DNA of 64,000 nt from Marsupella aquatica (GCA_973895155.1 OZ316891.1:16705651-16769650), one strand, 5' to 3'; positions 665 through 46,852 are shown, counted from the first letter of the stretch. The notes: generated by a model from the sequence alone, not told the origin. Program-made: numbers and translations.

Positions 665-3600
665 TCAGTCCCCATCATCTGCAAGGACTGATGGCATTAA
701 GCCCTTCCCTTGCCGAGGGAAAATTGGAATGACAATGGACCATCCTCTCATGGTGTGCATCGGAACCATAATGCACTGATCCACCTGGCTAGGAAAAACT
801 ATGGTGTCACTAAACTCAGTCCCTGTGGGTGCAACTCGGGTTGTGTCCACGCGATAAAAACCACACTCATCCGCAACCATCGTAGCTCTCGCTGGAGGTG
901 ACATGATCGACTTGTGCCACCTCACCTCTAATACAGTGGTGACAAATGACCCAAAATGAACATCTGAATTGTCCACAACTGTCCCACAATAAGGAACCTC
1001 TACATCATCTACATCAGTCATCATGAAGATTCCAGAGTTACAAGTACTCTTCTTCATATGGTCCGTCCTCCAAGTCCGAAAGTGGTGCCCTGACTCATAC
1101 ATGTGTGTATGAGTCGTGGCCCACATCCCTGGCCCCCTAATGATGTTTTGTACATCAATGGGAATGGATGTAGGCCCATGCAGAGCCAAGAGCCTGTCCA
1201 TGCGCTCCAAAGCCCAGACACAAAAAATGATGCAATGCCACGACCTGTTTGCGCAACTCCCACTTGAAGCTCCAACCATGCACTGCCAAATATGTTGTCA
1301 CAAGATTGTTAGAGATTTGCAGCCTTCTCAAATCCAAATCCAAATCACAATCTCATACAATTTTAGAGTACCATACCTATACATCTCCCTCCAATCAGAC
1401 ATCTCCGGTCGATTGCCCAACACATAATTATGGATCTGTCGATGGAAGATGTCATCATCCAATGATTGCTTCTTGGCCGCACCCATCAATTGCAACCCAC
1501 CATTGTCATCATCTTGTGCCTCTTCCCAAGTCATGGGAGCCACGCTGTCCAAACTCCCTATCACCCCCAAGAATAGAAATTAAAGACACTCTGACATAAT
1601 GAACCCTGTTGCCATACTTCCCTCAGGGCGAGCTGGTTGACGCACCCAACCCTTGAGCACCTTCATATATTGCTCAATCCAATACATCCACCGGGCATGG
1701 ACTGGGCCCGCAATGGCAACTTTATCCACTAGGTGACATAGCAAGTGCATTTGCATGTCAAATAGTACATGTTGGGGGGAACACTCGCTCCAAATTGCAC
1801 ATCACTTGCGCCGTCCTCTCCCTCATCAAAGGAATGTCAGACTCCTTGATCTCCTTGCCACATACCCACCTACGAGGCACTCAAAAACATTCCAGGAATA
1901 AATATCTCAACCCAACCAATTGTGGGCTAAGATGGTTACCAATTCAATGCCTAAGCTTATTGATCTCCCTCTACCTAAGATATTCCTAATAACGTCGTTC
2001 TTTAAGACGTTCTGAAAGGTGGGTTCCTAGACGACGTTCTTTACGTCGTATGTGACGTAGTATTGTGATATTACCTAGTCAAGAGAGACGTAAATTATTA
2101 AGAGACAACGTATCTTTTACTAGAATGTCGTTTGAGACACCATAAATTTATGTTCCCATAACACCACAAAATCAAACTCTAAGATAATTCCAACCTGAAA
2201 ATGGAGCACAACTCGTACACTATGAGTCGGAGTAGGCGGCGCTCTCTAGAATCATCGCAACAACACAACACTGTAGGGAGCACATGCTGTATCAACTTGT
2301 GATAATCATGGGACTTCAACCCTATCGGGGGGATGTACTCATTCCTCGTTGTGCACCCACGGAATCCAGCTCCGTAATGGCTTGGGAACTTCATCTCACA
2401 AATCATCCCATTCACATCCTTCAGAATGTCTCGAGGCAAAATCCAAGGGGCTGGTGGTGTCACCCCATTACGTGTTGTCCAAGAAAGAGAATCAACTTGT
2501 TAGGGTTTGGGGTTTCAGGCAATTAATTGCATAATAATACACAATATCCTGGGAAATTCTTACAAATCCAGGGCTGATGTTTTCTCATGTACCTGATATC
2601 CAACAGCTCTTCACAACTCCTACATTTTTTGCATCCACTCGAACTCCACGAGTATCATTCTCACCATACATGTACTTCACCAAATTCTTTGCGACCACTT
2701 CAATGTGCATGGGGTCCAGTAGCCACCGGATCTTGAGCATCTGCTTGCACAACATGGTAATAAAGTGGAAAACTCTAGCATTCTGAGAGTTGATGAAAAA
2801 AACTATACACAATGATAGGCTTATTGTACCTACCCTCCAATAAGGCAAGTCCCACAATGCTGATCGTCGGTTTACTCCACAATCTTTGGGTTTGAGCAGC
2901 TTAGCCTCCACCATCTCTGCCATTTGAATTTGAGCTTTTGTTGAAGGCACATTAGGACATGGTCTCAACTCAGTCTGTGCCCAATGTCTTGTGTTCCATC
3001 GCATGGGGTCATCCATTGATAATCTCATCGTGCTGCCCTCATATGTGGTTTTGTGCAATAGTACTGAGTACCTCCCATGCAACTCAGGGCCACATGAAGG
3101 GCAACCTGAGTAACCAGCCACCTTCAAGCCTGATATTGTGCCCATGCCTGCCAAAGAAACCCCGTCATATTTCCGCAATAAAAGAAGCCAAATGTTCTAC
3201 ATAAAGTGATTTAGCACAATATAATTACATTTTGGTTGCTTTTCAAATTACCTGGCCCATCAGTGGTGCAATGGGTGATCATGACTCTCATGTTGAATGT
3301 CCTCCCATTGTCCAGTGCACGGGGGACATCTATTGTTGGGGCCCCATTTTCCCACAAGTCATGTAGCTCTTCATAAGCTGGGGCCAAGCAAACATCTGGA
3401 TTCTTGCAAGCCTCGGGACCGGGAATGATAGCTAGGAGGAGAACATGACCCTTTTTCATCGCCAACCATGGAGGGATGTTTTGATTTATCAAAAGAACTG
3501 GCCACATGGACTTTGGCTTCCGTCGCTACTTGTATGGGTTTACCCCATCTATTGCCAACCCCAATCAAACGTTCCATGGCTCTGCCGCAAACTTTGGCCA

Positions 3601-3757
3601 TGTGGCATCAATGTGCTTCCATGCTGGACTATCTTGGTGATATCGCATTATCCCTGTTGGGGATTTGGTCTTGGCATGCCAAGTCTGTAGGGAGGATAGG
3701 TGTCTTCGCCAGTACAGATGCTGCAATCGGGGTGTGATTGGAAAATACCTCAGTACC
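665..3757 (-). pseudogene. CACTA transposase (TnpD/Transposase_21, DUF4218- and DUF4216-like), downstream exons; frameshifted
   Basis: Motifs LRYFPITPRLQHLY, DSPAWKHID, WPVLLINQNIPPW, LLDPMHIE, GLKSHDYHKLIQH and HLVDKVAIAGPVHARWMYWIEQYMKVLKGWVRQPARPEGSMA (~1600-1760), separated by GT-AG introns. Confidence 0.9.
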
Positions 3758-3804
3758 TGAATGGAAGACAACCATGAGGAATAATTCATCGTTAACATAA
3801 AAAA

Positions 3805-3928
3805 TACGTTCACCAGAACTATGTTCACCAGAACTACGTTCCCCAAACATATACATTGTTCAAGATGACGTATTAACTATATGTTGACCATAACTACGTT
3901 CCCTAAATATATACGTTGTTCAGGACGA
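3805..3928. repeat. ~60-bp intronic minisatellite, left part; continues at 15283-15345
   Basis: Unit gatgacgtattaactatatgttgaccataactacgttccctaaatatatacgttgttca occurs at 3864-3922 and again, nearly identical, at 15286-15344. Confidence 0.85.
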
Positions 3929-4162
3929 GGGGAATTTACAAACGACAGCAAACAGATAACAGTAACAGCAAACAGTTACTGTTATCAGCTAAAAGAAACT
4001 GTTACCAATGAACAGTGTTTGGGTAGCAGTGAACACTGATCATGAAAAAAGTGGACTAAAGATGCGTTTCAAACTACTGGTATAGAAATGAATACGATCA
4101 AATTCGCATGAAAGGAAATTGGACTAGACGGAATCATGTATTTTACAACAAATAAAACCGTT

Positions 4163-5048
4163 TCACAATTGAGATAAACAAAATCCGAGACCAATATATG
4201 TCAAAATGCACAGGGGAAAAATAAAACTGCCATATACAATCGCAAAGTACATAACACGTTCGGCGCAGGTCCAAAAAATGCCCATATAAGTTACAACCTG
4301 TAGGCCTAGAAATCTGATATACAGAAGCCACGGTAGACCCCGGCTGAGGATTTCCAGTAAAACAAAAGCAGTGTTGGGCGCTAGCCAACAACTGCAGGAA
4401 AAACTACGGAATTCCTGAAGACGACATCCGGGAAAAATCCTAACAACTAAGCCGAGGGCGACTCCATCCTGAAACATCGAAAGAGCTTAAGCAGCGCTCG
4501 GCTCTAGCTTAAAGTGATCACCAAACTGAACAATGTGATGCCGTTCTTCATGAAAAACCGGAGGAACAAGCAATAAGTGATTGCATCTAGCTTTCAGAGT
4601 TGCAATCATCCTCCAATCCTGCCGCTTCTCTCCTCCGATTTTTCTTGAATCCAAGACCACGCAATCGAATGTATCTCTCAGAAGGACCCCAATGCACTGC
4701 CCTCGTATAACCTTCATTGGGAATGTTACTGTCCTCAAAGTCAACTCGCCCAAACATTTCTTGAACTTTCCTATCGATTGGCAGTACACCATCAATAGGA
4801 ACAGCCTGATGAGACGAGAACGTGCTTGCAAATGGGAGCGGAGGAGAATCGACGATCCATGGGATGTTCTTTTCTCCAGGACTAATAGCTTCATCATACG
4901 GTAGAGCGTGACGGTTCCGAAAAGTAGAGGTTTCAGTTTCCTCAGTCTCCATCCGTGACTTAAAAGAACTGAAATGGCTCTCTTCCGGACGCACACGAGA
5001 AGGGAGGAACGTTGCCTCCCAATCCATGAGCTCACCGTTTGTCTCCAT
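4163..5048 (-). pseudogene. Possible third, degenerate cargo ORF of unknown function in the MULE
   Basis: Overlapping minus-strand ORFs 4587-5240, 4487-5035 and 4163-4477 can be joined across a frameshift and a stop. No domain recognised. Confidence 0.35.
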
Positions 5049-5299
5049 GTTTAATGAATCCAATCTAGTGGCAACTTCCCCTCTGAAAAAATGCAAAAAT
5101 TGTCTGCAAAAGGCCCGCAAAGGTTCGAAAATGGTCGTGGGTCCAAAAGATCTTGTCCGGGAGGAATGTCTCCCTCGAAACACCCGAAATGTATCTCCAG
5201 AAAAGGGGCCGCAACCGGGCGTCTGTCCCAAAATAGTCACCTGTCCAAAAACTTGTCGTCCGTGACAAGTGTCATCCTTGAAAACCGTCGTTTAGGGTT

Positions 5300-5420
5300 T
5301 GATCCTAAAATGTCGTCTGAGAGAGATGCCGCCAACAAGAGATCCTAAAATATCGTGCGAAAAAGCTGTCAACAAGAGATCCGAATGTCATCCAAGAGAT
5401 CCGAAAATGTCGTCCGAATA
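5300..5420. repeat. Short tandem repeat (aagagatccKaaaatRtcgt-like units)
   Basis: gatcctaaaatgtcgtc / gatcctaaaatatcgtg / gatccgaatgtcatcc / gatccgaaaatgtcgtcc in tandem. Confidence 0.7.
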
Positions 5421-5748
5421 TAGCCGATGTGGGTATCTTTGGAAAACTAACGGACCTAAATGAAATGGCCGTTGGTATTCGAAACGTCTATTATACTATG
5501 TATTCACTACTATTTGTCTCATTATGATGACCGTTGGTAGGACACGACAAAGACCAAACGGCCGTGTTACACAAAGAAGAGCTGGAAATATTTACTTTAC
5601 GAATCACCATTTGGCGAGCGCCTGGCGCTTGTAAAAACACAAGGAATCAGACCTTAATTTATCAGGAGTCAATGAGAAGATTTGAATACAACTTGGTACT
5701 AGCGCCAGGCGCTGGTAAAAAATTACTCCCTAAACTCCTCAATACGTG

Positions 5749-8700
5749 TCACAATTCTGCAGATTCTGATTCGGAACCAGAATCTGAACTCTCGGATTTG
5801 TCCGTGGACATAGCCTCATCATCTATGTACTGGCTGCGGGAGAAGTCATCAACATAAGGATGTTTCATGAACTTCCTGTCAACACCCCTTCTTAACCGAA
5901 GACCTTTGTTTTCCCAGCAAAGCGTCCTTGTACCCTAGGCTTTCCTTGCGGCTTTCTCTGCATAGGAGGGAAGAACAAAAGGTTTTTCTGGTGTTTCTAT
6001 GTTGTGTCTAGCAACCCTCCTTCGCAGTTTGAAACGTCTCCTTGCATTCCACTCTGACCTGATCAAACAAAATCCAGCTAGTTAGGAGCCTTTCTCCAAA
6101 ACAACACAAAAATGTTATAAATTGACGGGAATGGAGAAAGAAGCTTACGAGTTTATGAACATTACTCGGAAGAGTCATCACTATCGGTTTCATCAGGAGA
6201 TCAACGAGGTTCTTCCTTTTCCTCCTCCGAGTCCCTTGTACCTTGTTCATCTCCATCTCCACCTTCACTGGACTCATCATCAGAATCAAAATTGAGTACC
6301 TACCAAAGCTTATCTCGCTTCTTTCTGTCGGCAATAGGAACAGGTGGAGGTAAAACCGCAATCTCTTTGGGAGACAACAAATCCATGAAAACCTTCGAAG
6401 TGGTTTCAATAAATTCTTTTCTATGTTCTATCCCGAGCACAAACCTCCCGGAGAAGTCTCCAGCAATGAAGGAGCTTCCAGCCCCAGCGGTCCAATCCAT
6501 AAAAATATCACGAGGTCGGGTGACAAGCTTTATGACAGATTGCATAAACCCAACAGACAGGCGAGCATTTCCAGAAAATTCCATTTGCGGGAATGGATCG
6601 AATTTGAGAGAAGGGAGTCCGATCAAATTGGTGACCGAGGGGTCCTCACTAATGGAGAGTGGACGGAATTTAGGGTCTTTGGGAATTTTGCATTTCCCAT
6701 TAATTCGACCAAATATGTCCAGCCTGAGGGTAAACATCTGCGGAAAGCAATCCCAAGTGTCAGTTGGCAACTCTAGGTTAAACGAGTTATATTTCAAAAT
6801 GCGACATTGTTAAGAGTACATAATTACATGACGGTCTGTCTTTGCCGCGTACATCGGGACAGACATTACAACATTATGCGTGCATATGCACTGAAATTTT
6901 CTCGATTCTTGACAGGCAGCAATGACTTGAGACATGGGATCGTACTCCCCATTGTGTAGAATTGCTAGGAATCCATCATCTGATAGAAATGGATCCATGG
7001 ACTTGAAAAAAGATCTAGCCATGGAGTGATCTGGAGTGTTCCATTTAGGAACCTTCTTATCTATGATCGTTGGTTTGAACCCGGTCGGTAGGTAAATGAA
7101 ACCGGCATCCACTCCAAACGATCTTTCTTTTCCTCCCAGCACAACACCCTTCTCTTTATATCCCGACTTAACGAGATCCTTCCCCCACTGCTCCACATTA
7201 CTAACCCAATCAGGTTTTTCCCCCTTGTTGAAAGTCGAGTCAAAAAATTTGGACATGCTTGTCTCAACCATGGCATGATGAGACACTCTAGTTTTGAAGT
7301 TTCCAACTTCACGTTGGACACCGGATGCTGCAACACTCTCCCTTGAAGAAGGTCCACCTTGGATAGCTCGCTTTCGTTTCTTCTTGGTACTTGTGGCGTC
7401 GACCGGAACTATTACTTTCCCCTTGTCGACAGGAGTAATGGGGTCCGATCAGGCTCCGGTGTTTGCCTCAGAAACTTCAGGTGTAGCATCCACTTTAGTA
7501 TCTCCTGTTCCCGCTATATTAGACTTCCTCCCTCCTAAATTATCAATAGGTCCTAGTTAGAACAAGTAAATCCGGAGTATTGAAACAAGCTAGCGCCAGG
7601 CGCTAACCAAATAAAAATCACTTAGGTCTCAACAAAGGCCTAAGAATCTAGAAAGAAATGTGAATTCGAATGACAGTTCTACCCAGCGCCAGGCGCTGGC
7701 CAAACCACGGAACATTATACTCACTTTTCCTCCCAGATTTTGTTGACTCGCTTGGTGCTGCTAACTCCGCTTTTGCTTTCACTTGAGGTTTTCGACTTCA
7801 GTCCACATGAACAATAGTCGTTTCACAGATACTTTGCAAGTCTATCACAGACTTGTCTACATCGTCTATCAGGCCCTGCTTCATGTCCGACACAATTTTT
7901 GCTGGTATGTGGGACTTTGAAAGCTTGTGGAATGCATCTTTCTCCCTTTGATCAAAAGGAGAATCCCATCTATCTGTATCTAGATACCATGGGCAGTGAG
8001 TTCTCTCCCATTATGTCATAGGTCTCGGAGTAAATATGCCCTCCGCTGGGTACATGGAGTACAAATCAGCTATGGCGTCATCCTCACTTATTGTAATCCA
8101 CTTCATGAAAGCTGCAGGATATGCCCAGAAGTAATTAGGTTTGGTTACCTCCATGTGCATGTAGAACCTGTAAAGATACCTTTTAGCCCGCTTCTGGTTT
8201 TTCTGGGTGTAGTCTTCTTTGTCTGGATACTTTGAAGGCCACATCGTGTGAAAGAACTTACTCTTCACAGAATCACCATATCTCTTGAATTCATTTGTAA
8301 CAAACTGAATGAGATCATCAAACGAACCACAATTCCACTCTTCTAATCTAGTTGCGGGCATCGTCTACTCTACTTCACGCAGACATGAATGTAACATGTC
8401 GACAGCAATTCCCTCTACACTATTCCAAGTGATCCAAGTATGACACCATTGTTTGACTGGGTCGTCGTTAACACTTGCCGGGTGGAAAAACTGTCTCCAC
8501 AGCTCAGGATTGCAATCTGCCACAAGTAGGGTGCTTTCCAACTTTGGGTCTAGGGCAGAAACAGCAGTGAACAATCGGGTGCGGTCCATTGTACATACGA
8601 CGGCGTCAGGCTTCTTCTCTCTCTTGTTTCCTCTGTGACAGCATACATTTCTGCACATGTACTAAGAAAATCTTCAATTTAAGACTTAACAAGGGCGTAA

Positions 8701-9954
8701 TTTTTGAGGACTTCACTGCACAGTCTTTGGTTGCGTCCTTCATCATGGCCGCATGGCGTTTGGACATCTCGCCCACCGACCAGGGACTCCCTTGAGCCTC
8801 GGCTGCCTCCATGTCAAGCTTGAATTAGTGAGAATATGACTTTATCTTATTCTCACATAAAATGTAAACAAGAGGTTCCTGTGGCATCTTCTTTGTATAC
8901 CATGACCCCTTCCGAATGCTCTCAAACTTCTTGAAATTAGCTGGATCAATCAGTTTACTGTAATACTCAAGGTCATGCGCCAGAATTTGTTTGATTCTAT
9001 CTGCATCGAGAATCCAGGATGGCTCAACAACGGCTTGGCCAAGCCTACACAAAGAGATGCAGCGAGTTAGAGTCGAAGTACAATTTATGTATAACCAGCG
9101 TCGAGCGCTCTTAAATAGAACACTCGCAAGATTCAAAGAAGGTACCTGAAAAGAACGAGAACTTACTAATTCACGGTGTGCATAGCTATCTCGATTTCAA
9201 TAACAGATCCCTTGTCTCCCTTAAATATTGTGCAGAGCACTCGAGGATGGTATTTTGGATTGTCAAGATTCTCCTCGGTAACAAGTGTCCATGACTACAG
9301 CCTGTGATTTCCATCAAAGACAGAGAACATCTTATCCTTCAGCACGAGAAAATTTGGATCGGCCTCGCATTCTGCCTCAAACTTCTCGTTCTCCAATTGC
9401 CAAATTGGATCCCATGATTGACGAATTTCCTGGGTATAGGTCAGAACAATTCCATTCTCATCCGTTGGCTGCACATAGAAACGCATTCCTATGGAGGAAT
9501 TGTAACCCATACTGCGAAACGAGTCTTTCAGCTTCTCGATGGAAGAGCTATCTTTCTGCAAAGTACGAACCACCTCCATGTGAACCAATCGGCATAGAGG
9601 GATTCGAGGCGGCTCCTTGTCAAATCCACGAGAATCCTTTCCAAAACACATGACATGTTTTGAGATGAGATCAGTCTCCAGGAGTGCGCAGACCGAAATA
9701 TTTTGGATCGCAATCGTGTCAAGGTTCTCCATCTTTCTACGTAGAGATTTAGGAACCAAAACAACGCTAACAGAAGTAGGAGGCAGCAGCTTTGTGGAAC
9801 GAGTTACACGACATGTATAAACTGAAGCAGTAAACGAAGACTGCGAGGATTCAGAATAAGCTTGCTCTTGGTCAGGAGCAGCACTATACCCTCTGGATGA
9901 AGAGGGGAATACCTCCATCATCTTCCTTCCAGAAGCGTACGAACTATCGTACAA
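5749..9954 (-). pseudogene. Multi-exon ParB/Srx-like domain + beta-class N4/N6 DNA methyltransferase-like (PF01555-like) protein; several premature stops
   Basis: N-terminus IPLCRLVHMEVVR...IEKLKDSF...FSVFDGNHRL*SW. C-terminal part VDAGFIYLPTG (motif IV position), FLSDDGFLAIL, FMQSVIKLVTRPRDIFMDWTAGAGSSFIAGDFSGRFVLGIE (motifs X-I-II), then an acidic/basic tail. Approximate introns 9045-9166, 7554-7724, 6738-6827 and 6059-6165. Confidence 0.75.
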
Positions 9955-10192
9955 TGAAATTATGGAACTCTAATCAACTCTCAACGTGTAATATATTCTA
10001 GAAGGAGGGTGGAGTTCAACGGAACTCTTCGATTAAAGCGAGAAGCTCATAAGTTTGGCGGATTCCAACGTATGTATGCAGAGAACTTAATTAGCAAAAT
10101 CAAGCGATAGAAGAAGCATAACACACACGGAACTCATAAGTTACCGTTAAATGTTACCGTTATGACCGTTTTCTTCCCTCACTCGGAATACT

Positions 10193-10603
10193 AGTGCCGG
10201 GCACTATTATAAACAAGTTCCCGTGAAGTAGATAATTTGGATGATTGTCATGGCAGCGCCCGGCGCTAGTAAACATAACAGCTATAGAATAGGTTTGAAA
10301 TGGTGTCTCCAGTAAATAAATTTTGTGAAAACAACCCCATATTTGAAGAAATGTTTAATGTTTTAATGGTTTTTGGGAAACATTACTTGCATCCTATACT
10401 AGCGCCCGGCGCTAGTGATAACGGGTATTTTTCATCCATAGTTTTAAAATAATTCACATTTTCATTGATCATTTAAATCAAATTATTCTATAGTATTGAT
10501 GGATATCTGGAGGGTTTTTCGTATACTAGCGCCTGGCGCTAGTATGAAATATCGAGATTTGGGGCATATTATGTTTGAGATATTTTAGTTAGCGCCAGGC
10601 GCT
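10193..10603. promoter_or_regulatory. Cluster of five AGCGCCNGGCGCT palindromes in the divergent intergenic region
   Basis: Copies start at 10193 (AGTGCCGGGCACT), 10255, 10401, 10528 and 10591. The 10528 copy extends to the 23-bp ATACTAGCGCCTGGCGCTAGTAT. Regulatory role is inferred. Confidence 0.65.
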
Positions 10604-10881
10604 ACTCAAATTGTTCCAACTATACAATATCTTAGAGTCTGTTAAAGATTTTTGTGGTGTCTTTTTTGGCATTATGTACGTGTCTGACATCCGGACTTAT
10701 CGGGGAAAAACAACAAAATTCATTTATGGCGCCAACGGATCCTATATCGACTATGTTTTATGTCTTACACAAATGCATATGTTAACGTGAAGTTCCCATG
10801 TTCGACTGATATAAGCTCCATATTACCATAGACTTTTCTTCCTCGAAACATTACAGTCCTCGTTATTTGTTTTCGATTGCA

Positions 10882-13800
10882 ATGTCTCGGTCCATCGTTC
10901 TATCCCGATTCGGGACTAGGGATATTGTGACCATCCCCGTCCCTGTGGAAGACACGTACAAGCAGGTCCGGGAGAGATACCTTTGCGGTAGATTTGATTT
11001 GAAGATGAATGATATTGAGGCCATTCTTCGAGAGCTTGAAACCAGTGATGACATCAAAGATGCAGCAACATTCAATGTGGATGATGCTGAATGGTTTTGG
11101 CATCTATACGCGGGGATTTCGTACTCACTTCGAGTAAGACACCATGAAGGACCGTCCAGTGTCCCCCAAGATCCATTTGATGTTGTTGAGATTTCTTCTA
11201 GTGAAGATGGGGATCACACTCCAAGTCCTACGTTGAAAATGAAAGTCCTGCAATGTGCTGTCGTTAAAGGTGAGACTCCAGGAAGCTCCAACCAGTTGGA
11301 GGTCGTGTATCGGTGCAGTGCAATGGATACGTTACTCAAATCCACTGGTCATAGCGAGTTATCGAGGTTCATATCAGCGGGTGATTTCAGACATGAGCAA
11401 GTCTCCTGTCTGCCAACTAAGTATAATAGGAACGTCGTGTTTGAATTGCCACCAATTGACAAGATGCTCTCTAAAGGCTCTAGGCTTAGGGACATGGACC
11501 GTGCCAAAGATTGCTACATTTGGACACGCATATTTCCAACTACGGCGAACGTCCAGCCAAAAAACTTTTGGCAATTTGGTAAGGTTACCTGTACGGGATT
11601 CATTGAATGTCGAAACAAGTCCTGCGAGTACTTCCAAAGGAAGAAGAAGGCAAATGCTAAGGCATGGCAAGGTACTCCAAAGCTTAGTGGTCAGTATGTT
11701 GTCGGATCTTTTATCAAAGAGGGCGGTGTTGTGTGTCATTATTGTGATCAGATTCCTTTTTGTGTCAAGTATTGCCTTGCCCATTTGTTCTATATGTACC
11801 CGCAAGTATTACTTGATGCGGAAACATGTAGTCATATGTCCCGCCTGGCGATTCATATAGGTGAGCATAACCATCCAGGTAGAAAAACCTTATGTAGGAG
11901 TGCGGAGAAGATGGTTGAGGATTTAATTAAAAAAATCATGAAGCCAATCCTCTGGCAAAACCAGTTGGGATCTTGAATTCTGCTACAGGGTCCATAGTGA
12001 AAGCTCTCTGCGAACATGTTGACGACATAGTCGATATCGAAGAAACTGAAATATGGAAGTCTTTGATGGTACTTTCCACTCCCCAAAAGTTTGCATCTCT
12101 TTGTCGGAGCGTTAGGATAGACCAAAAGGGTCGGGGTGAACTTGATTTTCTCTCGCAAATGCAAAAGAAGATTAACCTGTTGTTTCTCCAGAGGTATTTT
12201 CTCCCGGGTCAGGGAATTCAAGAGGACAGGCCTCACATCTTTAAATTGACCACAAAGGATCACGGTTCCGGTGTGGATCTTTTGAGACAGATGCAACCTG
12301 GTGGAAGACTCGAAGGAGCCTGGGTCAGTTTTGATGTGATGCAGCGTATCACAACCGATTGGTTTACTTTTAGCGCGCATGTCTACGACCATAACTTCCG
12401 TGCACTTTGTACAATTTTCACATGCGAGTTGAAAGGTGAAGACACTTAGTCTTTCGAAAAGGCTTGGAGAGTTATGATTGAGGTTTGCAAGGAGAATGGA
12501 TTACATGAGGTTGTCATCCAAGGGTTTATGGCGGACAATGCACAAGCTGGATGGAATGTTGTGCGGAATGTTTTTTTCGGTGGACACCCAGACCTGGAGA
12601 GGGAGCGCTCTGATGCATTTCACTTTTATCAATCTTTCCATCGGCATTCCAAGGAAGGAGTACTCGAAGAATGTCAATCGGAACATCGAAGACCTTGGGA
12701 GAAACTAAGAAACGCTCCAACGTTTGTGGTAGCCTATCGCGTGTCCCGAGAGATTGTGGTTTGGTGGCAATCAGGAAATTGTGTCCCTGGAAAGCTCATG
12801 ATGCTACAAAGCTGGATATCCTGGTGGGTTGTTCGATGGCGCCAATGGGGAAATTTTATTCGAGTGGTATGACATCCATCTCCTCTCTTGTCTTTCATTT
12901 CCATCAACTTTATTAGCGCCAGGCGCTCGTATGATTTGCTCGTATTTGAGTCCAACATGTCCATAAAGTTCCAGAATCATACTTGCAATTGTATTTCACG
13001 TATGTTATAAATACTTGTCGGTGTCAGCGCCAGGCGCTGGTAATACAATGCTAGTACTGATTATTGCATTTGGACTATGGCAGAGCAAAAGCGCAGAAGA
13101 AGGTGCCTTGATTCCGAACTGTACAGGGTCAGAATCAAGGCATGCGTCTATGAAAGCTTGGGCTACAAAGAAAAAAGTTGGACTTTTTTAAGCATGCAAA
13201 GTGGACCAAAACCGAGCCCTATCTCAAGTTGCGGGATACAGTGCATATCAAAAAGGGTTGAACAGAGGAAAGGGACCGACTATATGGGAATTGGCGTTCC
13301 GTTCCGCCGATCAAGCAGGTTCGCCGAGGTTATTTGAAGATGTGACCAACATGCTTCTTTCAAACGCGACGGACTTCGATTTGGAAAGAAGTACTCCCCT
13401 TAACAGAGATATCGTGACCAAGTCAATGAAGAGAAAGGGACATGCAACTGGGACTGCCTCTCCACAAGACTCCCACCGGTGACACCGTTCTCATAACCAC
13501 ACCAAATACTCGTGGTTTGAAAAGGAAAAACCTAAACAGAACTGACTTTGCCTCCATTCCCTCAAATTCTAATGATCCTGTGACAAGAGTGGTGAATCTC
13601 TCTGGTATGGACACACCAGATGGTGATACTGATTCACTGGACAATACCCCTCAAACAACCCGTACAACAAGATCCACAAAACCTCCGCTCAGTGCACTAG
13701 CCTCACTTCAGAATCCACTTCCACGGACGATTGTGCTAGAAAAGGATGTCCCTCTGGGGCAGTGGCAGTTGCGACGGACGTCCAAGTATGGAGCAGGTCC

Positions 13801-14614
13801 CTAGTGTAATGGGACACTCAATGGGAGTTCTGATCGCGATGAGTGTCGAAATCGTATCAAGAAGGTTGGCTCCCATTCGTCTGACGGTGTTGTTGGAATT
13901 GTCGTGAAGGGCCATCGTCTCTTCAGGGGCGAACCGATCTCCGGAATGATTTGGTTCTGCCCAAACCAAACCTGTTATAAGGGTTGTCCGCGTCGTGGTG
14001 TTCATCAGCTTCCTCCTCTTCCTAAAATTTTGCCTGTTCTGAATGGTACGAGCCTATCTCCTTCTGAAATCACGTTCCTCGAAGAGCAAGGACTTGTCTT
14101 AGCCCAAACAACAGGATTGAGTCGATCTGCGCCATCTTCGTTTGACCTCAGGATAAATGTGAACGTGTTCCCAGAAATGATAAGGTTTTTGGAGCCAAAT
14201 GTCCGGCTGGGTAGTCGGAATGAGAGGAACTCAAGACCTCGGTCTAATCTCATTGTGGGTCACACTAAGCGAATGGAGTCTGCACGACAAGAAGAGATGA
14301 GTTTGGATGGGGAATGGAATGTTTGGACTAGAAATGCTTTTGGAAAACAATTTCAAATTCGAACCCATGAGAACTTTCGATCACCAAACACGTACTTCGT
14401 GCAAATCTGTATCTTCCCTGCTTGCTCATGTGAGGACTTCTTCCTACGACATTCGCGTGGCAAGTCGTACATGCCTTGTAAACATCTATACTGGGTGTAC
14501 ATAAATGTTTTCAAACTTGAGGTTGAGGAGTCGACTCTTTGTAGCCAACCAATTTTGACTGTGGGCGAAGTCAGGCTTGTCTTGGAGAGGCAGAACTTGA
14601 ATGGCTTACAATAG
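10882..14614 (+). pseudogene. MULE-like DDE transposase with N-terminal GCM/WRKY-like zinc-binding domain and C-terminal SWIM finger; frameshift and stops
   Basis: CTGFIECRNKSC...CHYC...C...IHIGEHNHP; VSFDVMQR; FMADNAQAGWNVVRNVF; DAFHFYQS; intron ~12868-13083; PNCTGSESRHASM...GKGP; SWIM CSCEDF...PCKH. Frameshift in the A-run near 11930 and TAG at 12447. Confidence 0.8.
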
Positions 14615-15542
14615 GGGTCGAAACTTCCGTATAGGTCGTTCAATATAACGGATAGTCACTATTTTGTCTTTACCCAATGGATATGTTACTTGTTTTATTC
14701 AAAGATTTTTGGTTAGCGTCGGGCGCTGCTTCCAAAAATCTTATTTTTCTTGCTTTTTTATGTATGCGTGTAGTGTAAGCATTACAACATGTTTTATTGA
14801 AAATGTGTAAGTTGATATCATTCTGTTTTTATCTTTCAAGCCGCATTTATTCAATTATTCTGAAATAAATCGTTAGGTGGTGTTTTGTCATTTGTTTGTC
14901 ACGGTACTCGGTCCATTTAAGTGAACTCATTTTGATTGAGTTCATTTGGACACTACTCTTCACTTGTTTTGTGGTGGGTCCCACCCTAAGGTTCACTTTT
15001 TAGCTTGGACGAATAGTGATATTTGAATGAATGTTTCATTGAGTATAGTCCCCATACCATGTTATTTATATACCCTAAATAATTATTTGTTTTAAACCTA
15101 ATTCACTAAAGAAAAATTATGTGATTAGCGTAGTTTTTCATTCGGACCAAAGGGCTATGGTTGATGCAAAATTGGGAACAGGGAATCGCTTACTGGTAAC
15201 AGTTAAATTTGACTGTTAACAGCAAAAAAATTCCTGGTAACAGGTTTTCTGTTTTCTGTTTTCTATCATGGCTATCATACCCTAGGATGACGTATTAACT
15301 CTATGTTGACCAAAACTACGTTCCCTAAACATATACGTTGTTCAAGAAGACATTTAAAAAATGTACGTCATCTGCAAAGACGTAAAATTCAAGTGGGAGT
15401 CGTTTAGGGTGTTTACATCGTGTTGTAAGACGTACATATCATGAGGGCAATGTTAACGGACACAAAACGCCGTAAGGTACGACAAAAAATAGTAAGATGG
15501 GAGGTTGTGTATGTGGACATGTGACAGAGAGGATGTCATTAC

Positions 15543-16345
15543 CTTCTCAGCAATCTTGTCTCCAATGGTATCAGGACGATACCGTGGAAGGCCACATCGC
15601 TCAATCAGGCAATGGGTGTGGTCCAAGTATGTCCCTCTATACAAGATGCACCCAGCAGGGCACATATGTATAGTCTCTAAAGCCAATCCGATAGAAGATA
15701 ACAACTTCTTAGCCTCTCTCACACAACCTGGAAGGTTGTTAGGTTGGGGCAAGATTTTGTTGTGGAACAACGCAAAGAGTGCATCTGTATGGACATCTGA
15801 TCCATTGAAAACCCCCTGTAAATTTAACATCAAGAGTGTGGCTCCCAACCTGCATTTGCATTGAAAACCACAAAGAAACCACCTTTTTAATTAGTTCCAG
15901 GCATGCCATTGAGTATGGTCCAATTGGGAACTTACGGGTTTATGCACACCCTTAAGCAACATTACAATAGAAAAACTATAATGGAATGATTGGATTGTAC
16001 CGTGAGGTCGGGGAACCCTGGAATAGCGGAGTCCTGGATTTTGTTTCCAGTTGGTCCCAATCATCTTCGTCTAGTTCCATGATAGGAGGGCCATCCTCAG
16101 GTACATGAGGTCCAAAGTGGATGTGCACAAGGTGCGCAAAAGCATCCTCTACATCTTCATCAAAATTGCCATCATGTGCATCATGGTACTCATCCACATC
16201 CTTGTCCACATCCTCGTCCTCATGCACATGATCACTCTCAACATCTTTGTCGTCAGAAAAAGATAATGTGGCTCGCATGTGGAATGCACGGGCTAACTCC
16301 GTCATCATCGATGGATGAGGTGTAGGTGTTATATTTGGACCATCC
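15543..16345 (-). pseudogene. CACTA transposase upstream exons
   Basis: ILPQPNNLPGCVREAKKLLSSIGLALETIHMCPAGCILY...CGLPRY...IAEK joins in frame to VLRYFP at 3757. The acidic exon 16000-16345 ends SRTPLFQGSPTSR. Confidence 0.85.
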
Positions 16346-33652: not shown

Positions 33653-36600
33653 GATTGGATCGTTTCTATCTACGTGAGCAAGGGGAATGGATAGAGGAAG
33701 TCAGTGAGCTGTGGCATGATGGAGGTTCGGCATTGTCAGATCACGACCCGGTGGTGTTGACTGTGCGGATAGCAGTTCCTGAGACAGGGGATAACACGGG
33801 GCCAAGAGTGAAACTCTTTAAGGCTAATCCTGAGATTGTAAGATGTAGGAGCAATATGGAGGCGCTAGAGAGTGCATGGGTTACTGGGAGGGGAAATGGC
33901 ACCGATCCCCTTTTGACTTTTGAGAGAGCAAGTGCAAGTTTACGGAAGGTATATACTTTGATCCAAGCTTCACCTAAGGATCAGGCAATGGATTTGGCTA
34001 TCCTGCGGAATGAACTACGAGCTCTCAAGTTGTCAATAGTGGAACACACAGAGGAGGATTTGAGAGACTATGTGAATGTAGAAGATGCATTACACGCTGC
34101 GGAATTAGAAGAAGCTCATTGTGGAAGAAGGCTGGCAAGGGTAAGGTGGCTGGGTGAAGGTGACGAGCCATCCAAGTTCTATTTTGCCACGACCAAGGCA
34201 AAACGTGCGCGAGAGGCCATGGTGCGGTTGGTGGTTGACGGTGGCAGGGAGCTGACAGACCCAGCTCGTATTCTTACTGAGGTGGTTGAATGTTGTGAAG
34301 AGCTTTATGCCCCAAGGACTTTACCGGGGTCTGACCAGATGGACACCTTAAGGGCGCGTCAGAAGCTTCTTGCGCATACGCAGTACACACTCACTGCTGC
34401 TAAAATTGCTTGGCTGGAGGGTCTACCAAATGATAAGGAAATAAAAGAGGTGTTATGGATGCTGCCAAGGGATAAAGCTCTTGGACCGGATGGCCTAACG
34501 GCGGAGGTGTACCGTGCTTGTTGGGACTTCATCCAGGTGGACCTGATCACCATGGTGCAGGAGTATTGGCTTACGGGTGGCTTACGGGTAGACTTGCTCC
34601 AGGGATCAAAGAAGGAATCATCAAATTCATCCCTAAGAAGCCTGACAAGCGCTTCTTGAGGGACCGGCGCCCACTGACTATGCTGAATACAATCTATAAG
34701 CTAATTGCAAATTTTTTGGCTTTACGGTTGAAATTGATTCTGCCTAAACTGATTAGCCCATAGCAAACAGGGTTCATCCCGAGACGGAACATCCTTGAGA
34801 ATATCTCCCTAGCTTGGCTTACTTGTGACTGGGTAAGAAATCATAAACAAAAATCGTTATTCCTGAAGTACGTTGGACTTTGAGAAGGCATTTGATCGTG
34901 TGAATCATATGTACATATGGGAAACGATGCTTCTGCTTGGAATCAGTAGTCAGTTCATTAAACTGGTGCAAGCTTTACTAAGTGAAGCTACTTCACGAGT
35001 GCATCTGAATGGAATGCTTTCGGGGGATATTGGTCTGCGGCATGGAGTGAGGCAAGGCTGTCCCTTGTCACCGTTACTTTTTGTAATTTCTACCCAACCA
35101 CTCATGGATTATATGGATGCGGGGCTGGCAGGAGGAAGACTACTAGGGATACGAAATTTTGAGCAACTTATAGTGTGCTATCGGTTGTTTGCTGATGACC
35201 TTGGAATGTTTATCCCTGCCACTGAGAGAGGCTTCCAACTGGTGACGGCAGTATTGCACTGCTACAAAACAGCCAAGGGGGCTAAATTGAATTTGCAAAA
35301 ATCTGTGGTGATTCATGTGGGGATGGAGAACACCCCGACATGGCTTAGAGAGACTGGCTGTATTATCAGTGCTCCGGGAGAGTTACAGAAATACCTTGGG
35401 GCCCCACTTGGTGTGGACTTGAAGACAGAGCAACTACATAGGTTTCGCCTGGACAAGATTGGTATCAGGCTTTCTTCATGGGCCAACAAGCTACTGTCAT
35501 TCACTGGGAGATCCCTTTTAATCCGCCATATTCTCCAGGCAATACCTATTTATCATACTATGTTTCTAAAGGCATCGGCAGGTCTGGCACGGAAATTAAC
35601 TGCACTTTGCCGTGACTTTCTTTGGGGATACAATCCGGAAGGAGGCAGAAAGATCCCTCTGGTTTCATGGGCACGGATGTTGAGGCCGCAAATGAAGGGT
35701 GGCCTGGGGTTTAAGGAATTCAGGAGCCACTCAGATGCCTTACTCTCTAAGTGGTTCACACGGGCGCTGGACTGTCCAACATCTGAGTGGGCTCTCATGT
35801 TTGAAGCGAACCTGAACCTGATCAGTTGGGAGAACTACAAGGTGATACGCAGGAACTCGTACACTTTTAGGGATAAACTGTTGCTATGCAGCCCTAGGTC
35901 TTTTCATGGTTTATCCTATACGGGCGGGCTATGGAGGGCATGGACTGAACTCCGCTCACATCTCATTTTTGTACCCTTGGAAGTGATTCCTGGTAGATGG
36001 AGTATAGGGGACACTTTGCGCTGCTTGAAAGGATTTCAAGCTTGGTCACATGAGGATTTTGCGGTGGTAATAGAGAGCTTTGGTAGGTTGGGGATTAAAT
36101 GTATTCAGAATCTGTGGAGAGAAGAGCCGGGTGGTTGGATAGACTTATCAGAACGGTGGGATCATATCAGGGGACTCTTAGCGGTTCAGCAGGTGAAGTG
36201 CAGGGATTTTGGTGAGAGGCTCATGGAAATCAGGTCCTACCAGTTTGACTATGTTCCTGGACTGGTCTGTTGGAGGTGGGCTGATAAGCTTGGGATGCTA
36301 AAAGAATTCAAACTCACTAATGTACGAGCGTACCAATTTTTACATCCAAATGCTGCGGATTATGAGACCCTGAACCGTACTTGGGGTACATACAAGTCGG
36401 CAGCAGAATGGAGAGAAGGTTGGGCAGGGATATGGAGATCGGATTTGTCAACACGTGCCAAGACCTTTATCTGGCGGGTGTTGGCTTCAGGACTTTTTAC
36501 AGGAGTGAGAGCTGCTCGCATTGGCAAGGGTTTGGGGCAATGCAAGCTATGTCCTAGAGATTGTGAATCACTTCCGCATTTATTTATGCTCTGTGAACAT

Positions 36601-37193
36601 GCAAGGAAGTGCTGGCTGGTGTGCGCAGATAGTTTTGGGGGTTTGTTGGCTAACTTCCCAGTTGGATTGGTCGGGTTGCTGGATTCTGCGATGGGGAGAG
36701 AACCCATGAAAGTAGTGAAAATGTTTGTGCTTTATCAGATGCTATGGATGTTGTGGACTGGTAGGAATGAACATATGTTTCAGGTAGCGGGTACGCGTAG
36801 ATTTGACTTTAGGTTTTTGCTTTCGGAGGCCTCGGACCATGTTGCTGCTATTGGACAGGGGCTGCCCCGAAACAGAAGACATAGTAGATTACTTCGTGCA
36901 CGCAAACAGCTTAATGTAGAGAGAGTTGTATGGCTCAGCCGCAGTGATGGGTGGGTGACATCGGTCACCCGGTCTTGACATTGGTGCAGGTGGACTGCTT
37001 TTGGTGGTTCCGGTGTCTTGCCCCTATGGACTGATGTTTTCGCTACGGGGTGTGGGATGTTTCTTTTTTTTGTGCCCTTGGGCTGTACTGGTCTGGCTTT
37101 TGCTGGTTCTGGTGGGTGCTGTTACTTGACGTGTGCTGCTTGCTTCCCCCTGCCACGCGGTTTTCGTGGCTTGCTTATTTATAAAAAGAAAAA
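33653..37193 (+). mobile_element. 5'-truncated LINE (L1-like): endonuclease C-terminus, RT, zf-RVT, A-rich tail; frameshifted
   Basis: LDRFY...SDHDPV; KALGPDGL; RPLTMLNTIYK; LDFEKAFDRV; GVRQGCPLSP; LFADD; KYLG; GGLG; CKLC...HLFMLC; tail ataaaaagaaaaa. Confidence 0.9.
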
Positions 37194-38049: not shown

Positions 38050-39240
38050 TGCAGGTCATCACAACATGTCAAGAGTAAAAGAAATTCCAGTGTTTGTTCA
38101 CTCATAATGTGGTGATCCCTATGTATGGGGCCAAGTCCGATGTGCAGGTAATTTAACAACCAAAATTGGATTTTGGCTAGCACCCAACACTGTTAAGTTT
38201 ATCTTGACCTCACCTTATTTTTTTCATTGCAGGTTTTCACTATGCGCCTAGATTATTTTTTGCAAATCTTGTCAAAGGTCAAAAATCCAAAGGATCCTAA
38301 ATTCATACCACTTTCAAGAATTGAGGATCCCTCTATCACAAATCTGGTTGGACTTCCTTTTGCAAAGGTGGATACAAATCCTAAGCTTGAATTTGCTAGA
38401 AATGCCAGACTCCATCCAGGATTCATGCAGTCTTTGTTGGAGTTAATTACGTGCCCAAGTGATATTGTTTTGGATTGGGTTGTAAGTTCCGGGAGTACTT
38501 TTGTGGTAGGGGATTACTATGATCAATTTGTAATTGGAGTCAAGAATAGGATGGAGTTCCTTGAAAGGGCTTCAAAGATATTTTTGGAACTTCTCACTCC
38601 CAAAGTACTTGAATTGTCTGCTCCTCCTGGAAATGTGGTTGCAAAGAGGAAGAGAATCAAACTTAGATCAGTCCTCAATTTTGATTCAGACGATGAAGAG
38701 TATGCCGGTGAGGGGGAAGGACAAGAGGATCTCCACATTCCCATAGCACCGCAAACTGGAGAGGATCACAAATCTAATGAAGGGAGGGACAACGGAGACT
38801 CTTCTGAGTAATGCTTGTAAGCTTCCTGTCAAGCTCCCCCTCTCCGGAATTCACTCTTTGCTTTCACTTTTCCCATCCAGTTTTTCCTTTTTCAAAAATA
38901 CTGTGAGTTGACATACAAGACAAAATTCTCCTCCTCGGGTCAGACTTTAATCTATGACGGCATTTCCAACTCAGAAGGAAAGTTGCCAGAAGTTGTATTG
39001 GGACTCTAGAGAAACCATTTGTATTACCTTTGTATGCCAAGAATGCTGCCAGGAGAGTTGATAGTGTGCGTACACTCCAATAGGAGAATAAAGGTCTGAG
39101 ACCAAGGAGAGGTTTTGATAGGAAGTTTGTTAAAAACCCATATGTTGATGACATGTCGAAAGCAAATTTATTGATGACGAAGCAGAGTCCACCGACAGGT
39201 CTAAGTCAAGCGAGTCAAAGTTCTCAAATGAAGTTAGGTC
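38050..39240 (+). pseudogene. Partial paralog of the methyltransferase-like gene (3' exons), remnant of a second related element
   Basis: PMYGAKSDVQ|intron|VFTMRLDYF...FMQSLLELITCPSDIVLDWVVSSGSTFVVGDYYDQFVIGVK...LNFDSDDE...EKPFVLP...ENKGLR...DRKF..PYVDD, colinear with 5749-6900. Confidence 0.85.
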
Positions 39241-40592
39241 AGAATAGTAATTCAGGTTTTTACTATAATGGTGAAGTTATACTAGTGCCGGGGGCTACTG
39301 AAATGTCTTCTTTGAATTTCTTCTTGGAACGCTTATGTGTTTTGTACTTCAGCCGATATGTATAAAACTATTCTGTCAATTCATTTCATTTCATCCACTA
39401 TGATCAAGGTCATGACAGATTATTGACATTGAATCCAAGTGACATTCATTTTGTGTGTGGGATGTTCATAATGTTACCTTGGCAAATACAATAAAAATAA
39501 TGGCAATATTATAAATTAGAACATCTTTAGTGTCCACTGAGTTAAAAGCTGTTCGTGCTAATAAGAGGAGGCAGGGCAAACAAAAATTTGAATTAAGCTG
39601 GAGACTCATGGTGAATCTGGAGTGTCATTTTTAGTGCTTGCACATGGTACACAGTGAAGGGTTTATTCGGAAAGTACAGGATTCGAAACAAGAAGATGCT
39701 AGTCTTTTGCAAAGAGCCAATGCCATCGCGTCGGGACTTATAAGTGAGGGTGACTTACAAGTGAAGGGTACCCTTGCAACATGGAAGAGACTAACATATG
39801 GATTCATACAAATACAAAGAAAAAGTTTGAGGGTGTTCTGCCTACATCGGGAAAGTAAGGAAGAACAAGAAACATTTTCCTAAAGCAAATTCAATAATTA
39901 AATTTGAAAAATAGCACCGATTAGGAGGTGAGGTAGATTGTCCACAAGGGGACTCTAAAAAAAGGCTCCAAACCGATTATCGACTTTGGTACGAGCCACG
40001 TCAAGTCAATCTGGCGGTTGCATTGAAATAAACGTTGAGGAGAGCCCGATAGACAAGCAAGGGGGTGGTGTTGGATGAAGAAATAAACCTAGGTAGCGGT
40101 GGTAAGTGGGAACGCCACGGGGGAGTCTTTTTAGAGGAGTTTCTCGGGTTGGTACTGCATCTCCGGCACTGGGTCACCAGATGACGACGACGATCGGTGT
40201 GGGACAGACGAGGTCTAAACGAGAAGAGGAAAGAGAGCGAAGTGGGATCATGTGTTTGTGAAGTGTTGAGGACTGGAGTGTCCTGAAATTGTTGTTCGTT
40301 TGGATGCCTGTACGTGTGCCGGGAGCAGAATCTCTCCTGGATAGCCAACTGATTCATTCCTCGCCACCGAGGATTGATCGGCAAGAAGAGACGGAGGGGC
40401 GGACACTGCTTCGGGGCTGTTTGGAGACAGGTCATCGGCGCGAGTTTTTCGGAGGTGTGCAGGTGAAGTCCGCTTGTAGTTGTTGCGGTGGTGTTGCAGA
40501 GCAGCAGTTCGTGAGAAAGGTAATGGTATGGTGTTGAGATCGATCTTGCGGCGATAAGTGGATACAAAACGGGAAAGGGTGGGGTTGAACTT

Positions 40593-46500: not shown

Positions 46501-46852
46501 TCGGTACTTGGTCGGCAGACGGCTCCACAACTTTGGGGAGAGGAAACGAAGTGGATCACCTGCAACTCCCAAAGCGGAAAGTTTCCCTGTGACAACCAGA
46601 TTTGCTGCTTCAGCCATGGAAGAGGATCCTAGACTAGGCAGCCCCACAGATCAAGACTCCCCTTCCACTCTGCCTACGTCTACTTCAGCAGGAAGTAGTA
46701 GTACTGCTGTTGTGGAGGATAAGAGACCAGCTGAATCCAGGGATGTCTTATTAAGGGCAGCAATACAAGAAGGTGAGAGAATAGGGATAGCAGGGGCATC
46801 TTTGCGGTTTCGCCATTCCACTGCTACTTCTTCAAGCGATGCTGACCAATAA
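40593..46852 (+). CDS. SUD1: ERAD RING-CH E3 ubiquitin ligase, SUD1/DOA10/MARCH6 family; exons 40593-40886, 41820-42551, 42865-43605, 44058-44269, 44402-44764, 45037-45194, 45378-45541, 45774-45920, 46175-46852
   Basis: RINGv CRIC...[96 protein letters not shown]; many hydrophobic helices. Splice sites keep the frame. Confidence 0.95.

Follow-up and report, generated by a model that had tools for sequence, protein, structure and literature searches.

A probably Mutator-like transposon of a land plant combines a predicted ParB–methyltransferase fusion gene with palindromes dispersed through its non-coding DNA

We analysed a 64-kb stretch of Marsupella aquatica DNA (GCA_973895155.1, OZ316891.1:16705651-16769650; 64,000 nucleotides, hereafter the window), in which positions 3929-15282 are taken up by a decayed transposon copy of ~11 kb. 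Two divergent genes lie head to head within it: an accessory gene on the minus strand, whose product is predicted to join a ParB-like half to a methyltransferase-like half, and a transposase gene on the plus strand. Between and inside these genes, and always in non-coding DNA, lie 14 copies of one short palindrome. The features on which the argument draws are as follows.

3921-3928 (+): left target-site duplication, 8 bp, within a 60-bp tandem repeat of a flanking CACTA-like element
3929-4010: left end, with GGG terminus, imperfect terminal inverted repeat and short ACAGC/AAACAG repeats
4370-4382: decayed palindrome with three C>T changes, outside the 14 counted (background of this class ~0.2 per 64 kb)
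4493-4505: palindrome with two mismatches; nearly all relatives' contigs have G at 4503, which leaves one mismatch
5617-5713: two exact palindromes (5617, 5701) past the accessory-gene stop codon
5747-6058 (-): accessory exon 5, a tail common to Riccia relatives
6166-6737 (-): accessory exon 4, second half of the predicted methyltransferase fold, with motif I (DWTAGAG, 6500-6477) and an acidic tail
6828-7534 (-): accessory exon 3, encoding a basic linker and the initial half of the predicted methyltransferase fold, with a degenerate motif IV (YLPT, 7100-7080)
7592-7697: two exact palindromes (7592, 7685) in accessory intron 2
7725-9044 (-): accessory exon 2, helical region, the first part of which can be loosely aligned to the DNA-binding domain of ParB; a frameshift falls between 8684 and 8631
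9097-9109: palindrome with two mismatches in accessory intron 1
9167-9921 (-): accessory exon 1, predicted ParB/sulfiredoxin-fold nucleotide-binding domain, with DGNHR at 9315-9301
10193-10603: five palindromes between the divergent genes, at 10193 (two mismatches) and at 10255, 10401, 10528 and 10591 (exact)
10882-12866 (+): transposase exon 1, with a Cys/His-rich region (11590-11625), two catalytic-like Asp (12327-12335, 12528-12539) and DxxH (12612-12623); frameshift near 11928, one stop
12915-13038: part of the transposase intron, with exact palindromes at 12915 and 13026
13084-14614 (+): transposase exon 2, with a catalytic-like Glu (13129-13143) and, from 14423 on, a SWIM-like finger at the C terminus; two stops and, near 13479, a frameshift
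14715-14727: palindrome with one mismatch, past the transposase
15190-15282: right end, with imperfect terminal inverted repeat, GTTTTCT three times and CCC terminus
15283-15290 (+): right target-site duplication, 8 bp

The element begins with GGG and ends with CCC, and its outer ~70-90 bp form an imperfect terminal inverted repeat. Its 8-bp target-site duplications (3921-3928 and 15283-15290) are identical at six of eight positions, both differences being C/T, a length within the 8-11 bp range of Mutator-like elements (MULEs; PMC6446971). Excision in silico restores the 60-bp tandem-repeat period of the flanking CACTA-like element, and the duplication-bounded element with a transposase that had been called in an earlier reading of the DNA alone (the sequence-only reading) is borne out. 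The insertion target is the internal tandem repeat of that CACTA-like element (2585-3928 and 15283-15890), in whose flanking frame a profile search gave a weak Transposase_21 match (E 5e-4).

The transposase gene (plus strand, 10882-14614) yields a 1,172-residue model with one intron, three stops and two frameshifts. Searches of Pfam, NCBIfam, PDB and Atlas returned no match to it, the MULE DDE profile included, and it has no relative in the viral and prokaryotic genome collections that were scanned. Read by eye, the model displays what we take to be a Cys/His cluster, two Asp residues, a DxxH motif, a Glu and a SWIM-like finger in the expected order. Because of this motif order and a duplication length in the MULE range, the carrier is probably Mutator-like; the label given in the sequence-only reading thus keeps the backing of duplication length and by-eye motifs, while no profile matched the transposase.

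Both genes are damaged, the accessory gene by ten stops and one frameshift, and the present copy is dead. It belongs to a dispersed multi-copy family: relatives' contigs from four sequencing runs number 3212, 4696 and 2866 (each over all 30 element bins) and 219, and they show many variants of varied identity, although, being short, they give neither a copy count nor gene linkage. Because one stop per gene and the two transposase frameshifts are places where relatives differ from the present copy, its lesions are largely private.

The accessory gene (minus strand, 9921-5747) is spliced from five exons into a model of 1,221 residues, of which residues 101-1062 align with a Riccia sorocarpa protein, P0153 (1,207 residues), at 25% identity (E 3e-71). 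Because the alignment spans both halves in this way, the ParB–methylase fusion is not a splicing artefact. A phmmer search gave 282 clusters at E<=0.001; the 20 relatives looked up among the 150 clusters listed include at least eight from R. sorocarpa, two from Calypogeia fissa and two from Adiantum, and the methylase profile finds 39 Riccia gene models and one other protein. By sequence similarity, the protein has relatives in liverworts and ferns, which by itself would make a bryophyte-like host probable. When viral and prokaryotic genome collections were scanned for ParB, neither a prokaryotic nor a viral relative turned up, and word-based searching of proteins of 607-2000 residues gave no match to the methylase exons. 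Because a tblastn search of P0153 against phages matched motif I only (E 0.03, three records), we assign no bacterial or phage donor, and the basis for a bacterial derivation would be the predicted fold. Two candidate features of the gene were rejected on inspection: separate introns at 8869-8820 and 8714-8662, which relatives read through as one exon with a frameshift, and a stop at 6808-6810 as a methylase lesion, which falls in an intron. Some relatives in three runs skip intron 3 (6739-6832, the joint having two letters between), which suggests that intron-less copies of the methylase region exist.

The folds of both halves were modelled on Riccia relatives. For the ParB-like side, the model of P0012, built from a 58-row alignment, has a predicted local distance difference test score (pLDDT) mostly above 85 over residues 160-720. 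A fold search of this model against 48,161 chains placed ParB/sulfiredoxin folds, matched at residues 150-330, in all of the top six positions (Z 7.7-4.9), with KorB first (Z 7.7, root-mean-square deviation (RMSD) 2.7, 95 residues aligned), PadC (7.0), ParB-N (6.4), Srx (5.8) and SerK (5.1). Nucleotide-bound ParB structures align over 179-198 residues, covering the amino-terminal and DNA-binding domains, with Z 8.3-8.9 (for residues 165-536, 193/194 residues, Z 8.9, RMSD 7.3 Å), which suggests that a ParB-type DNA-binding region is present; the fold search of this model gave no separate helix-turn-helix match, and its residues 540-730 have no clear fold match. The Box II-like GxxR motif reads DGNHR, with the Gly kept in 47/49 relatives, the Arg in 44/49 and an upstream Arg in 46/49 (44-48 of 49 rows over these residues as a whole); the canonical ParB motif is GERR, in place of which GNHR stands here. 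Sequence searches for ParB in Pfam, NCBIfam, PHROGs and PDB gave no match; the best viral Foldseek match is a ParB-like phage protein (E 6e-3), and the leads from Atlas (DUF6551, DndB and DUF3723) all score below 0.9. Among 28 purified orphan ParB folds, 11 bound a nucleotide (cytidine, adenosine or guanosine triphosphate; CTP, ATP or GTP) and 17 bound none (bioRxiv 2025.10.10.680097), and a phage ParB activates its partner enzyme in the absence of its NTP residues (PMC13229309). Because orphan ParB folds vary in this way, and their specificity is unpredictable from sequence or models, use of CTP is not to be assumed.

The methyltransferase side was modelled on Riccia P0154 (mean pLDDT 53), which matches CcrM in Foldseek (E 8e-9) and, in fold comparison, MboIIA (Z 11.8), CcrM (11.0), PvuII (10.1) and the N4CMT structure (9.6). 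The order of motifs, IV before I, is that of the beta class of amino-methyltransferases (N4/N6, PF01555). A profile made from the Riccia rows alone finds exons 3 and 4 of the window at E 6.5e-10 and 8e-6, and Pfam N6_N4_Mtase matches exon 4 (E 6e-4). These predictions agree with the sequence-only call of a divergent, spliced ParB–N4/N6-methyltransferase gene, both folds finding structural matches through the relatives (Z up to 8.9 and 11.8).

Of the two motifs of this fold, one is kept and one has degenerated. The SAM-binding motif I is kept: it reads DFAGGWG in 21 of 29 pattern matches among the fetched relatives, and the DWTAGAG of the window aligns with motif I of M1.HpyAVI. Catalytic motif IV, canonically (D/N/S)PP(Y/F), takes the form D-[LM]-P-[ST] in Riccia, while the window and its closest relative, P0196, share Y-L-P-T. 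Of 68 matched rows, 39 span this motif and 29 do not; among the 39 (two of them misaligned), Asp holds the first position in 34, and none carries the aromatic residue, which in N4CMT stacks on the target base (PMC10406627). In two sequences of the window's family, Tyr replaces the Asp. The methyltransferase domain is most likely a pseudo-enzyme in this lineage, and because the aromatic residue is missing from 39/39 aligned relatives, with the Asp also lost in the window's family, the earlier suggestion that the protein 'marks' its DNA is unlikely to hold. Motif I is degraded further in a paralogous gene remnant at 38052-39296. The sole fetched relative with an aromatic motif IV residue, by pattern match, is P0127 of Adiantum nelumboides (DVPF), and fern copies might be active methylases.

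The palindrome AGCGCCNGGCGCT occurs exactly ten times in the window, always at 5617-13038, and not once in 100 shuffles. With up to two mismatches allowed, 15 sites are found against 0.76 expected in the window; 14 are inside the element, and the fifteenth (39284) sits behind a second, partial copy of the accessory gene. All 14 element sites fall outside the coding model, the non-coding DNA making up 32% of the element (P ~1e-7), which upholds the earlier claim of about 14 palindromes restricted to the element and almost entirely to its non-coding stretches. The flanking 52 kb, in which several other transposons and a host gene lie, do not contain the palindrome except at the paralog, and an unbiased palindrome count finds no other enriched palindromic word, be it within the element or elsewhere in the window. 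The sites are spread over seven of nine non-coding compartments, introns 3 and 4 of the accessory gene having none; five of the 14 lie between the two start codons and five in introns. Symmetrised, their consensus reaches ~21 bp, and 10524-10544 is a perfect 21-bp palindrome; paired sites in the window are spaced 84-123 bp apart. A scan of viral contigs with a 17-bp form of the site gave three single, unrelated matches.

Among relatives' contigs, the region between the two genes has 28 commonly variable positions, of which one falls within the 65 motif positions (P 0.07). With 3-nucleotide flanks added, a width picked afterwards, there is one variable position in 95 (P 0.010). Loose contig ends stand at motif edges in 11 of the 12 cases shown, and are not counted as evidence because sites from elsewhere can align there.

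Two further sources bear on how the site evolves. The first lies in the window itself.

38052-39296 (+): remnant of a second, distant copy, comprising accessory-gene exons 3-5 (49-64% amino acid identity); one decayed palindrome lies in intron 3 (38179), another past the stop codon (39284)

Here a site is kept behind the same stop codon even though alignment at the DNA level is confined to the exons; the intron 3 site is more decayed. The window shows no transposase remnant of this second copy. Some 1 kb ahead of this 5'-truncated copy ends a LINE-like element (33655-36978, plus strand) whose frames are long. The second source is four metagenome relatives (39-41% identity), two of which have a different inverted repeat in intron 1, CTCGGC-N7-GCCGAG, with 8-bp arms and a 7-nucleotide spacer. 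Contig L002 carries it twice, 95 bp apart (883-1000), a spacing like that of the window's pairs, and L003 has a degenerate copy (742-764). These repeats hint that the site sequence changes between subfamilies or families; because a comparable perfect repeat arose in 11/300 shuffles, they are a hint, not proof.

We tentatively propose, at a probability of roughly 0.45, that a dimer of the element-encoded ParB-like protein binds its family's own palindromes and keeps the element expressed against silencing, without methylating it. The twofold symmetry of the site calls for a dimeric reader, which would be the ParB half. As with ParB, KorB or Noc, loading may be controlled by nucleotide binding, and the methyltransferase fold would act as a non-catalytic DNA-binding or dimerising module. 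Occupation of the shared promoter, with its five sites, and of the introns would then counter host silencing by 5-methylcytosine (5mC), much as VANC proteins do on VANDAL elements. In favour of this reading are the confinement of the sites to the element's non-coding DNA, their cluster between the start codons, the scarcity of variable positions within them, the site kept in the paralog, the different intron 1 repeat of two metagenome relatives, the ParB-fold matches with the kept Box II-like residues, and a ratio of observed to expected CpG of 0.79 in the element against 0.46-0.57 across the rest of the window; precedents are VANC21 and the self-binding proposed for algal ParB accessory genes. 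The idea of a self-binding accessory protein, already voiced in the sequence-only reading, is to this extent supported as a prediction.

Several observations weigh against this proposal. The five imperfect sites contain nine mismatches, of which seven are C>T or G>A, as 5mC decay leaves them, and the sites of dead copies were therefore probably methylated rather than shielded. The higher CpG level of the element could stem from age. The conservation test restricted to the motif misses 0.05, and no contig, all being short, joins accessory gene, transposase and sites in another copy. A Mutator transposase can itself act, that of AtMu1 being reported to activate cognate copies in a sequence-specific manner (bioRxiv 10.64898/2026.08.24.746577). 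Riccia proteins at ~25% identity, and not the protein of the window itself, are the source of the folds; the Z-scores for ParB are moderate and the long alignments have RMSDs of 7-8 Å; Foldseek against PDB gave nothing at E<=0.001 for the P0012 model, and ParB Pfam models match 0/49 relatives. The second inverted repeat is known from two short contigs, and its second copy in L002 could be a local duplication; the L004 intron 1 has no such repeat, and L001, whose contig ends 60 nucleotides into the intron, shows none.

A more specific form of the proposal, which we regard as rather doubtful, has a nucleotide-gated ParB clamp load at parS-like, family-specific palindromes and spread over the element, with the dead methyltransferase fold gripping DNA or shielding cytosines from host silencing. 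We consider it unlikely that the palindromes are instead binding sites of the transposase, through its Cys/His-rich amino-terminal region, for self-activation or end pairing, with the ParB–methylase as separate cargo. The transposase does have a candidate zinc-binding DNA-binding region, and the motifs of Spm TnpA and the activation reported for the AtMu1 transposase can be cited as parallels. The palindromes, however, stay out of the outermost 440 bp at either end, and the ends carry different short repeats of their own; because of both facts, the sites are not the usual end motifs of a transposase. A twofold site of 13-21 bp also fits a ParB-type dimer, and ParB genes accompany inverted repeats in an unrelated superfamily, Plavaka.

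The ParB-like protein might bind the sites and yet serve transposition, by loading, sliding or bridging in a way that condenses the 11-kb element and puts its weak ends within reach of the transposase. Short, imperfect end repeats, sites along the whole element, and a ParB fold with its nucleotide motifs kept would all suit such a role, but the densest cluster is at the shared promoter region and not at the ends, and we think this quite unlikely. It is improbable that an active methylase is delivered to the palindromes to write N4-methylcytosine or N6-methyladenine (4mC or 6mA) on the element: the beta-class fold, the motif I pattern in 29 fetched relatives, the Asp at the first motif IV position (34/39 rows), the DVPF pattern match from a fern and the CCNGG within the site speak for it, and against it stand the fourth motif IV position, aromatic in 0/39 rows, the Tyr for Asp in the window's family and the further degraded motif I of the paralog. 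That nothing encoded by the element reads the palindromes, and that they are hairpins in the RNA, aids to splicing, sites for host factors or neutral repeats, as five intronic sites and G+C-rich arms might allow, is very improbable, given that a hairpin is impossible with a 1-nucleotide loop, that the same word recurs in intergenic DNA with no strand preference, and that the 52 kb of flanking DNA lack it outside the paralog.

Related arrangements have been described in algae, contrary to the sequence-only reading, which knew of none. In the brown alga Ectocarpus, the transposon Sola1-1_Ec32 has a 1,104-residue gene for a ParB-like and N4/N6 methyltransferase protein antisense to its transposase, and self-modification has been proposed (PMC12477816). 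By description it resembles the present element in its opposite-strand gene, protein length (~1100-1200 residues), domain pair and proposed self-binding. It differs in host and superfamily (a brown alga and Sola, as against a land plant and a probably Mutator-like carrier) and in its methylase, taken there as possibly active where motif IV is degenerate here; the passages on that element describe no binding sites. Red-algal transposons (Plavaka, Zisupton and Mutator), with the accessory genes PAG2 and PAG3, carry the ParB-domain gene PAG3 beside inverted-repeat arrays, again with self-binding proposed (bioRxiv 2025.02.11.637652, Petroll). Going by description, the likeness lies in a ParB accessory gene, inverted repeats of the element's own and a PF01555 methylase as cargo. 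There, however, ParB is fused to a 2-oxoglutarate (2OG) oxygenase and the methylase is separate, with a SET domain, whereas a single fused protein is predicted here; and the repeats there are arrayed in tandem beside the gene, in contrast to single sites dispersed through introns and intergenic DNA.

VANC21 of Arabidopsis binds motifs in the non-coding DNA of VANDAL21 (PMC5735166), likewise an element of Mutator type that has an accessory gene and whose non-coding DNA is rich in motifs specific to its family. Those motifs are 9 bp long, non-palindromic and in one orientation, and the anti-silencing shown experimentally there is a proposal here; fold searches found no resemblance to VANC. Bacterial ParB, Noc and KorB and the phage ParB–N6N4-methyltransferase fusions (bioRxiv 2025.10.10.680097; PDB 7o0n, 7bm8, 6sdk, 8qa8) share with the predicted protein the GxxR nucleotide-binding fold, a DNA-binding domain with which its helical region loosely aligns, fusion to a PF01555-type methylase, and palindromic sites. 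They differ from it in that the gene here is a spliced eukaryotic one with long helical insertions and a degenerate methylase, and has no ParA: none of the element's frames (transposase, fusion gene and one small unmatched frame) encodes such a partner. Eukaryotic beta-class amino-methyltransferase folds are also known from N4CMT of bdelloid rotifers (PMC10406627) and MpDN4MT1 of Marchantia (bioRxiv 2021.02.12.428880), which are active host enzymes, horizontally acquired 4mC methylases (N4CMT with SPPY), in contrast to transposon cargo that lacks the motif; the word ParB is absent from the Marchantia preprint. ParB-type helix-turn-helix–methylase fusions occur in chlorophytes and chytrids (PMC4738411). 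We found no description of a ParB–methylase transposon in land plants in the literature searched, with subscription journals and preprint supplements outside the search. What is new here is the occurrence in land plants, the probably Mutator-like carrier, the single sites dispersed in introns, the degenerate catalytic motif and the hint of family-specific sites.

To our knowledge, experiments have demonstrated binding and de-silencing of a protein's own transposon for VANC and TnpA-type proteins only, whereas accessory genes of the ParB type have so far been a sequence-based proposal from algae. The present family supplies a candidate site of 13-21 bp and a hint that the site differs from one subfamily to another, and its liverwort and fern relatives stand near tractable models; ParB loading and spreading, and anti-silencing on eukaryotic chromatin, therefore become directly testable. 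If the load-and-spread form of the proposal is true, a ParB/parS-type system of that kind would be at work in a eukaryotic nucleus, with a natural code of protein–site specificity that could offer orthogonal protein–site pairs for chromatin targeting in plants.

Three smaller features complete the picture of the window.

4587-5084 (-): open frame of ~165 codons, intact-looking, either an additional 3' exon or a small third gene, which may begin at a splice acceptor

This frame has no match in Pfam, PDB or the fetched proteins. Between it and the accessory gene, 5290-5420 holds three to four imperfect direct repeats of ~17-35 bp resembling TCCTAAAATGTCGTC. Far downstream, at 41793-46852 (plus strand), lie exons of a host membrane protein, which we take, from its look, to be a SUD1/DOA10-type E3 ligase.

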